The notes under the pieces: model-generated
Databases searched by the model: none
Seen by the model: only the letters and a program-made list of their open reading frames with translations
What the model was told of the DNA's origin: nothing
Position numbers and translations under genes: made by a program
Shown here: in pieces, positions 5,662 through 6,171 of the stretch
How positions within the stretch are numbered: the stretch's first letter is position 1
Layout of the letters: every line of letters begins with the position of its first letter
Sequence record: OR844765
From: Escherichia phage ECO111 5-P
Strand: one strand, 5' to 3'
DNA length: 64,000 nt

Positions 5662-5885
5662 GCGTATTAACAGAAACTTTGATTAATGACCTGCGTCTAG
5701 CCGGTTACGAAGTTGGTACAAATAGCCTAGGTCTTCCTCAGATTGAAGGGCCTGGATTTATCCTAGAATATGAATTCAAACAATGGTGGTTATATGCTAC
5801 GGTTGACGATGCGATGAATATTGATTTCGTTGACCAATTTGATTCGCTGGATGCTGCTCTTGAAGCAGCAAAGGAACTAGAATGA
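5658..5885 (+). CDS. Hypothetical acidic protein (75 aa)
   Basis: ATGA overlap; stop codon lies inside the first copy of a 20-bp tandem repeat. Confidence 0.5.
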   Translation: MSVLTETLINDLRLAGYEVGTNSLGLPQIEGPGFILEYEFKQWWLYATVDDAMNIDFVDQFDSLDAALEAAKELE

Positions 5886-5910
5886 AATTAAGGAACTAGA
5901 ATGAAATTAA
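5871..5910 (+). repeat. Tandem direct duplication, 2 x 20 bp (AGGAACTAGAATGAAATTAA), at a gene junction
   Basis: Read directly; each copy carries a stop/start overlap (TGA/ATG). Confidence 0.8.
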
Positions 5911-6171
5911 CTCGAATCAGTATAACTGAAGAAAAGCTGGGCGAATTTTATGTTGACGAATACATGAAAGTCACGTATTTTCCATTCGTTAAAGGTGTTG
6001 GTTTTTTGGGAAACTCATGTATCTCAATTAAACGAAGGCGACTATAACGAAACACATGAGAACTTTTTAGATTTTCTTTATAATGCCGGTCTTACTGAGC
6101 TTTATATCGATATCCATGAGTTCAAACGTTTAATGGAAAAAGTGTTTCAGGCTTATTGTTTGCTCCGATAG
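5901..6171 (+). pseudogene. Two short ORFs in different frames (5901-6047 and about 5996-6171) split at a T6 run; possible frameshifted gene
   Basis: 48-aa ORF from ATG 5901 and about 58-aa ORF ending 6171 overlap in different frames at GTTTTTTGGG (6001-6010); neither is in the ORF track. Confidence 0.3.

Follow-up and report, generated by a model that had tools for sequence, protein, structure and literature searches.

How is a small gene to be read when its frame stops midway and goes on in another frame? This question is raised by the interval between the gene 55.1 homolog and the late sigma factor gene 55 in Escherichia phage ECO111 5-P (record OR844765), of which a stretch of 64,000 nucleotides (the window; positions count from its first letter, one strand, 5' to 3') was analysed. 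By megablast, the window belongs to the genus Mosigvirus, the RB69-like T4-type coliphages (matches in 193 phage records, with identities of up to ~96–97%). In this interval, a short tandem duplication precedes a reading frame that breaks at a run of six T (T6), and two genes, a disrupted gene, a recoding site or a sequencing error could each give this picture. Our analysis indicates that we are probably dealing with two ordinary and recent slippage mutations, one of which inactivated a dispensable early gene of the DUF7200 family, while the duplication is harmless.

The open reading frame (ORF) list agreed with the preliminary description, made from the letters alone, in that the frame starting at ATG 5901 ends after 48 codons (stop at 6047), so that the window lacks an uninterrupted DUF7200 frame of ~89 codons, and in that an overlapping frame, open from 5995, runs to 6171. 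The overlap had been placed at GTTTTTTGGG (6001–6010), which is essentially correct, the T run proper occupying 6002–6007; the split at this homopolymer was thus rightly described, and the change of frame needed to cross it is +1. When a single T of the run was deleted, an 89-amino acid (aa) protein was obtained that is 100% identical to a protein found on 274 contigs. This restored protein matched Pfam DUF7200 (PF23830) over its full length (residues 1–89 of 89, 117.5 bits against a gathering cut-off of 27) and phrog_1822 of PHROGs over the same 89 residues, and its cluster at 90% identity includes RB69ORF072c. With respect to this known family, the restored frame is a 100% identical, full-length member, found at the same place between 55.1 and 55.

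The intact state of the gene was evident in the relatives. The aligned phages AlbertHofmann, HX01 and mar007P3, as well as pEB20, showed five T in the run (T5) and a single copy of the 19-mer that is duplicated in the window, and in these T5 relatives the gene is one continuous coding sequence (CDS) of 270 nt and 89 aa, whose ATG overlaps the stop of 55.1 as ATGA. The last of them, vB_EcoM-pJBB/pEB20 (OP114733, 168,078 bp, Illumina/SPAdes), carries the exact 55.1 protein of the window and differs from the window by 3–5%, with T5 and without the duplication. Two independent conserved ORFs, each with its own start site, had been named beforehand as the finding that would speak against a broken gene; the comparison with related phages yielded instead the one 89-aa ORF with T5. 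In the out-of-frame part, nucleotides 6007–6171, the window does not differ from the majority sequence of AlbertHofmann, HX01 and mar007P3.

Both sequence changes are rare. None of 118 phage records was 100% identical to the stretch 5965–6045 around the T6 run, and among the 30 of these 118 that were listed, each lacked exactly one base. Over the duplication junction, the best records listed spanned 67 nt, compared with 86 nt in the window, and no exact match to the junction was found among the IMG/VR viral contigs. A gapped pattern search allowing any length of the T run recovered one viral contig (IMG/VR) and two metagenome contigs, all of them T5, and gave no match among genome contigs.

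To judge what the frameshift does to the product, an AlphaFold2 model calculated from the homolog alignment (predicted local distance difference test, pLDDT, 92.5) was considered. It describes a small alpha/beta fold with strands at residues 5–10, 14–19, 23–27 and 36–39 and helices at 48–61 and 71–88. Owing to the shift after residue 35, the 48-aa product lacks strand 4 and both helices and should be unable to form the predicted fold, and from this model we infer that the frameshift amounts to a loss of DUF7200 function.

A split frame at a run of T could also be a device in use, as the preliminary description had suggested by mentioning programmed frameshifting or slippage. According to this explanation, a +1 slip of tRNA-Phe on GGU UUU UUG, or slippage of RNA polymerase on U6, would restore the 89-aa protein at a set ratio to the stub. 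The site has some of the features that such a slip would use: on U UUU UU, UUU re-pairs with UUU with perfect pairing, the slip regenerates exactly the wild-type ...VGFWETH..., and a weak Shine-Dalgarno-like AAAGGUG lies 5 nt upstream. In these points, namely the +1 change, the perfect re-pairing of the P-site tRNA and the upstream Shine-Dalgarno-like motif, it resembles the programmed +1 frameshifting of prfB. However, the A site of prfB is occupied by a stop or hungry codon, whereas here it holds, in frame 0, UUG (Leu), a sense codon that is not rare in E. coli, so that the slow codon of a prfB-like site is missing; the spacing of the Shine-Dalgarno-like motif differs as well, and this motif is also present in T5 genomes, which means that it did not evolve for frameshifting. 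The shift site and the two-frame organisation, conserved in a prfB-like system, are not conserved either, as the T5 homologs compared are single-frame and, in more distant homologs, the F at that position is replaced by Y. As for the polymerase, efficient transcriptional slippage in E. coli needs ~8–9 A or T, and the run is only six long. The suggestion therefore found no support, the site being absent from all aligned relatives and without an exact match in the 118 records, and the known stimulators being lacking, and we regard programmed or leaky recoding as extremely unlikely. It is conceivable, from the sequence of the run, that a trace of full-length protein is made through a +1 slip at T6, but this would be incidental.

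GTG 5995 and TTG 5998 were also considered as starts for a separately translated C-terminal part. The sole Shine-Dalgarno-like motif there, AAAGG at 5991–5995, abuts or overlaps these codons, which makes such a start unlikely, and a C-terminal ORF beginning at either codon was called by gene callers nowhere.

The second change in the interval is the tandem duplication at the junction between 55.1 and the DUF7200 gene. Tandem Repeats Finder (TRF) reported one exact array at 5871–5910, with a period of 19, 2.1 copies, 100% match and the unit AAGGAACTAGAATGAAATT, and a direct check showed that the identity at period 19 spans exactly these 40 nt, which comprise two copies of 19 nt and a microhomology of 2 nt (AA). 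The repeat had been described as one of 20 bp. It is indeed a tandem repeat, but its period is 19 and not 20, since the 20-mer AGGAACTAGAATGAAATTAA occurs at 5872 and at 5891, its copies sharing one base. This array is the sole perfect tandem repeat in the 64-kb window, and by our own arithmetic (21 forced matches at ~0.27 each) the number expected by chance in the whole window is far below 1e-5, so the duplication is not a chance match. A small hairpin (stem of 7 bp, seen on folding the RNA of the window and of AlbertHofmann) ends exactly at the left edge of the duplicated unit; it is present in the relatives too, and it may have favoured the slippage.

As the preliminary description had it, the duplication covers the upstream stop and the downstream ATG and creates a tiny MKLRN ORF, which was verified by translation (ATG at 5882). 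The final 15 nt of the 55.1 homolog (KELE end), including its stop TGA at 5883–5885, lie inside copy 1, and the DUF7200 start ATG 5901 lies in copy 2; for this reason, the sequences of both adjoining proteins are unchanged by the duplication, whose sole coding addition is the 5-codon mini-ORF. The ATG of the latter overlaps the stop of 55.1, and its TAG ends 1 nt ahead of ATG 5901. In this way, the ATGA overlap of stop and start is exchanged for a relay consisting of the 55.1 stop, the 5-codon mini-ORF and TAG-A-ATG, an arrangement that would be suited to termination-reinitiation, and AAGGA is retained 6 nt upstream of each ATG (5882 and 5901). When the RNA of the junction was folded in both forms, duplicated and single-copy, neither Shine-Dalgarno sequence became hidden by a new structure, and the z-scores were unremarkable. 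A role of the duplication as compensation for the frameshift was ruled out, since the 20 nt gained in all (19 + 1) are not divisible by 3 and any read-through would be halted by the stop in copy 1.

Beyond the window, the exact 48-aa product was found in two other assemblies, ENA ERZ27275920 (k141_79324, a 169-kb contig) and Logan SRR10084837 (a 27-kb contig), both with T6 and a single copy of the 19-mer. They diverge from the window by 1.4–4%, and the presence of T6 in this divergent strain means that the allele exists in at least two Mosigvirus backgrounds. Judging from these sequences, the T6 allele genuinely occurs in nature or, at the least, recurs. The DUF7200 gene (5901–6171 in the window) is nearly invariant across the genus at the nucleotide level, with 0–1 substitutions per 270 nt compared with ~1.5–4% difference in the flanking genes, a near-invariance with which recurrent slippage and recombinational transfer of the allele would both be compatible.

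Several observations weigh against two genuine mutations in a dispensable gene. The contigs from ERZ27275920 and SRR10084837 agree with each other at 100% of positions over 3.76 kb and thus represent one strain; they may come from the same sample or the same phage, and the independent support for T6 amounts to one extra strain. The strong conservation of the DUF7200 gene throughout the genus implies that its loss is not obviously neutral. In addition, two rare indels only 115 nt apart are unusual and could mean a local assembly problem, and a second frameshift by homopolymer length, A5 instead of A6 at 44087–44091 in a homing endonuclease gene, is also compatible with a low rate of homopolymer miscalls. 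Together with the fact that, among the deposited phage genomes searched, T6 and the duplication are private to this record, the last two points would fit an artefact, in which the extra T is a miscall, the duplication is the untrimmed 19-nt overlap of two contigs joined end to end, and the real phage has an intact DUF7200 gene.

The error rate of the assembly was therefore estimated. Of the 104 annotated proteins of the nearest relative, mar008P4, searched against the window by tblastn, only the DUF7200 protein was split over two frames (1 of 104 CDSs), in spite of 272 homopolymer runs of at least 5 in the window; an assembly prone to such errors would show many homopolymer frameshifts across conserved genes. 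Along the first 25 kb, the window differed from two relatives by 3 and 5 single-base indels, and these well-sequenced relatives differed from each other at a similar rate, by 2; apart from the T6 site, these indels were located in intergenic or hypervariable stretches. The HNH/NUMOD3 homing endonuclease, encoded directly after gene 39 (topoisomerase II large subunit) and absent from mar008P4, is 265 aa long in phages such as a20, and in the window it is broken into parts of 121 and 143 aa. However, the same split products recur in phage AV118 and in 13–18 Logan contigs, which indicates that this allele, too, is natural. Likewise, T6 is the consensus in the two further assemblies, which derive from a different strain. 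As for an untrimmed contig overlap, 19 nt would imply an even k of 20 (overlap of k-1), and common assemblers use odd k. Finally, both frameshifts fall in dispensable accessory genes and none in an essential gene, a distribution that, with the caution due to small numbers, is more in keeping with real mutations that have passed through selection than with miscalls at random. On balance, we consider a sequencing or assembly artefact rather unlikely, albeit the most serious of the alternatives, and we infer that both changes are true mutations.

If so, their nature is well known. Changes of homopolymer length by one base and short tandem duplications are classical classes of spontaneous frameshift mutations in T4, explained by the Streisinger model and studied in the rII and e genes. 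What the window shows is a T6 instead of the T5 of relatives and a perfect 40-nt tandem array bounded by the short direct repeat AA, single-copy in the relatives. The single-base gain in a run and the perfect duplication with 2-nt microhomology are the same as in the T4 mutations at the rII and lysozyme hotspots, and the phage and its polymerase are likewise of T4 type; those T4 cases, however, were mutants selected in the laboratory, whereas here the genome is a natural or deposited one, for which the mutational origin is deduced. The homing-endonuclease genes of T-even phages offer a second likeness, within the same window: they degenerate in the same mode, by a homopolymer-length change (A6 to A5) in a dispensable gene, with the difference that the family is another one (HNH/NUMOD3) and that its split allele has a wider distribution, over several phages and contigs.

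The likely sequence of events would then be as follows. The gain of one T in the T5 run would have thrown the DUF7200 gene out of frame after codon 35, leaving a stub of 48 residues. The 19-nt tandem duplication, arising at the AA microhomology where the unit abuts the hairpin, would have copied the junction between 55.1 and DUF7200. As T6 is common to another strain and the duplication is private to the window, T6 was probably the first to appear, and a later duplication would have arisen in a start region already freed from constraint. Both events seem to be recent, given that the out-of-frame 3' part shows no further change from the majority sequence of the aligned T5 relatives. Among the three causes proposed in the preliminary description (a recent frameshift pseudogene, a sequencing error, or programmed slippage), the pseudogene is thus the best supported, in agreement with the single-frame T5 genes of the relatives.

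A further question is whether the inactivation was only tolerated or was selected. DUF7200 could be harmful on a given host, either as a trigger of abortive infection or another defence or because it is toxic, and such a host would favour frameshift escape mutants, which would arise preferentially at the T5 run; this reading keeps the two slippage mutations and adds a cause to them. It would account for an identical lesion in two divergent strains, and for the presence of two lesions within or at the edge of a single small gene, on which purifying selection is otherwise strong, as the identical protein on 274 contigs attests. However, T6 is rare (0 of 118 deposited genomes), and its sharing can be explained by recombination or by recurrence at a hotspot, with no need for selection, so that we hold a selected knock-out to be distinctly improbable. 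It is very unlikely, in turn, that the T5 run acts as a recurrent mutational switch, by which Mosigviruses would lose and regain DUF7200 under a host penalty, with +1 slippage on GGU UUU UUG trickling full-length protein. In a phase-variable contingency locus both tract lengths would be common, whereas here the intact T5 state accounted for 118 phage records and 3 contigs, and the T6 state for no more than the window and a single further strain.

The features of the locus and of the second frameshift are collected in Table 1.

Table 1. Position of the features discussed within the 64,000-nt window of phage ECO111 5-P.
Feature	Positions	Strand	Evidence
55.2 homolog, 126 aa	5281–5661	+	ORF list; Pfam DUF7570
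Gene 55.1 homolog, 75 aa, intact	5658–5885	+	ORF list; Pfam DUF5495, E 9.3e-30
Small 7-bp hairpin, stem 5852–5858 / 5864–5870, loop CTTGA	5852–5870	+	RNA folding (window and AlbertHofmann)
Copy 1 of the duplicated unit; Shine-Dalgarno-like AAGGA, end of 55.1, ATGA overlap	5871–5889	+	TRF, direct check
Mini-ORF MKLRN (with stop), made by the duplication	5882–5899	+	Translation
Copy 2 (5890–5908) and microhomology AA (5909–5910); second AAGGA, authentic ATG 5901	5890–5910	+	TRF, direct check
Truncated DUF7200 frame, 48 codons: 35 native and 13 out-of-frame residues, then stop	5901–6047	+	ORF list; alignment with 89-aa homologs
T6 homopolymer (T5 in all aligned relatives), holding the +1 insertion	6002–6007	+	Alignments, direct check
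Remaining 54 DUF7200 codons (W36–R89) and stop, now in the +1 frame	6007–6171	+	ORF list, alignment
Gene 55 (late sigma factor), 185 aa, intact, next gene downstream of DUF7200	6244–6801	+	ORF list; annotation of relatives
HNH/NUMOD3 homing endonuclease directly after gene 39, frameshift at 44087–44091	43752–44548	+	

Regarding the neighbourhood, the order on the + strand of the window is the gene 55.2 homolog, the gene 55.1 homolog, the DUF7200 gene (homolog of RB69ORF072c) and gene 55, and annotated relatives have 55.2, 55.1, an unnamed 270-nt CDS and then gene 55. The 75-aa ORF is annotated as gp55.1 in mar007P3 and RB69. In the spacer before gene 55, inspection of the sequence revealed a TGCTTTA (6179–6185) that resembles the T4 MotA box, and an 8-bp inverted repeat, ATAGGTCT / AGACCTAT (6188–6195 / 6215–6222), flanking a TATAAT at 6209–6214; both are identical in the relatives. 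A simple sigma-70 scan called no + strand promoter at 6179–6222, upstream of gene 55.

Upstream, the ORF at 4759–4959 (+ strand, 66 aa), which occupies the position of 55.3, was strongly divergent from the Mosigvirus relatives compared over 4740–4960. Its exact sequence was found in one contig only, and the other members of its 90% cluster, of 65 aa, belong to phages such as vB_EcoM_VR26, vB_EcoM_RZ, UPEC01 and DK-13. From this distribution, it looks like a mosaic allele swapped between T4-type lineages. Elsewhere in the window, the gp61.4 homolog of mar008P4 (70 aa) had no tblastn match, and ~200 bases of this relative remained unmatched at a junction of blastn blocks at ~27800.

In conclusion, the feature is an ordinary one, a disrupted accessory gene accompanied by a neutral junction duplication. 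For annotation, this means that the 48-codon ORF and the open frame downstream of it are to be treated as one disrupted DUF7200 gene, or pseudogene, rather than as two genes or a recoding site, and that MKLRN is not to be annotated as a gene. If a recurrent switch did operate at the T5 run, DUF7200 would be a candidate defence trigger or counter-defence factor, identifiable through its natural frameshift alleles, and proof of selection for the knock-out would offer a first clue to what this family does. With regard to the phages themselves, the locus provides a data point that a strongly conserved gene, that of DUF7200, is dispensable for at least some RB69-like phages, and that accessory genes with slippage alleles at homopolymers are in circulation among Mosigviruses in nature.
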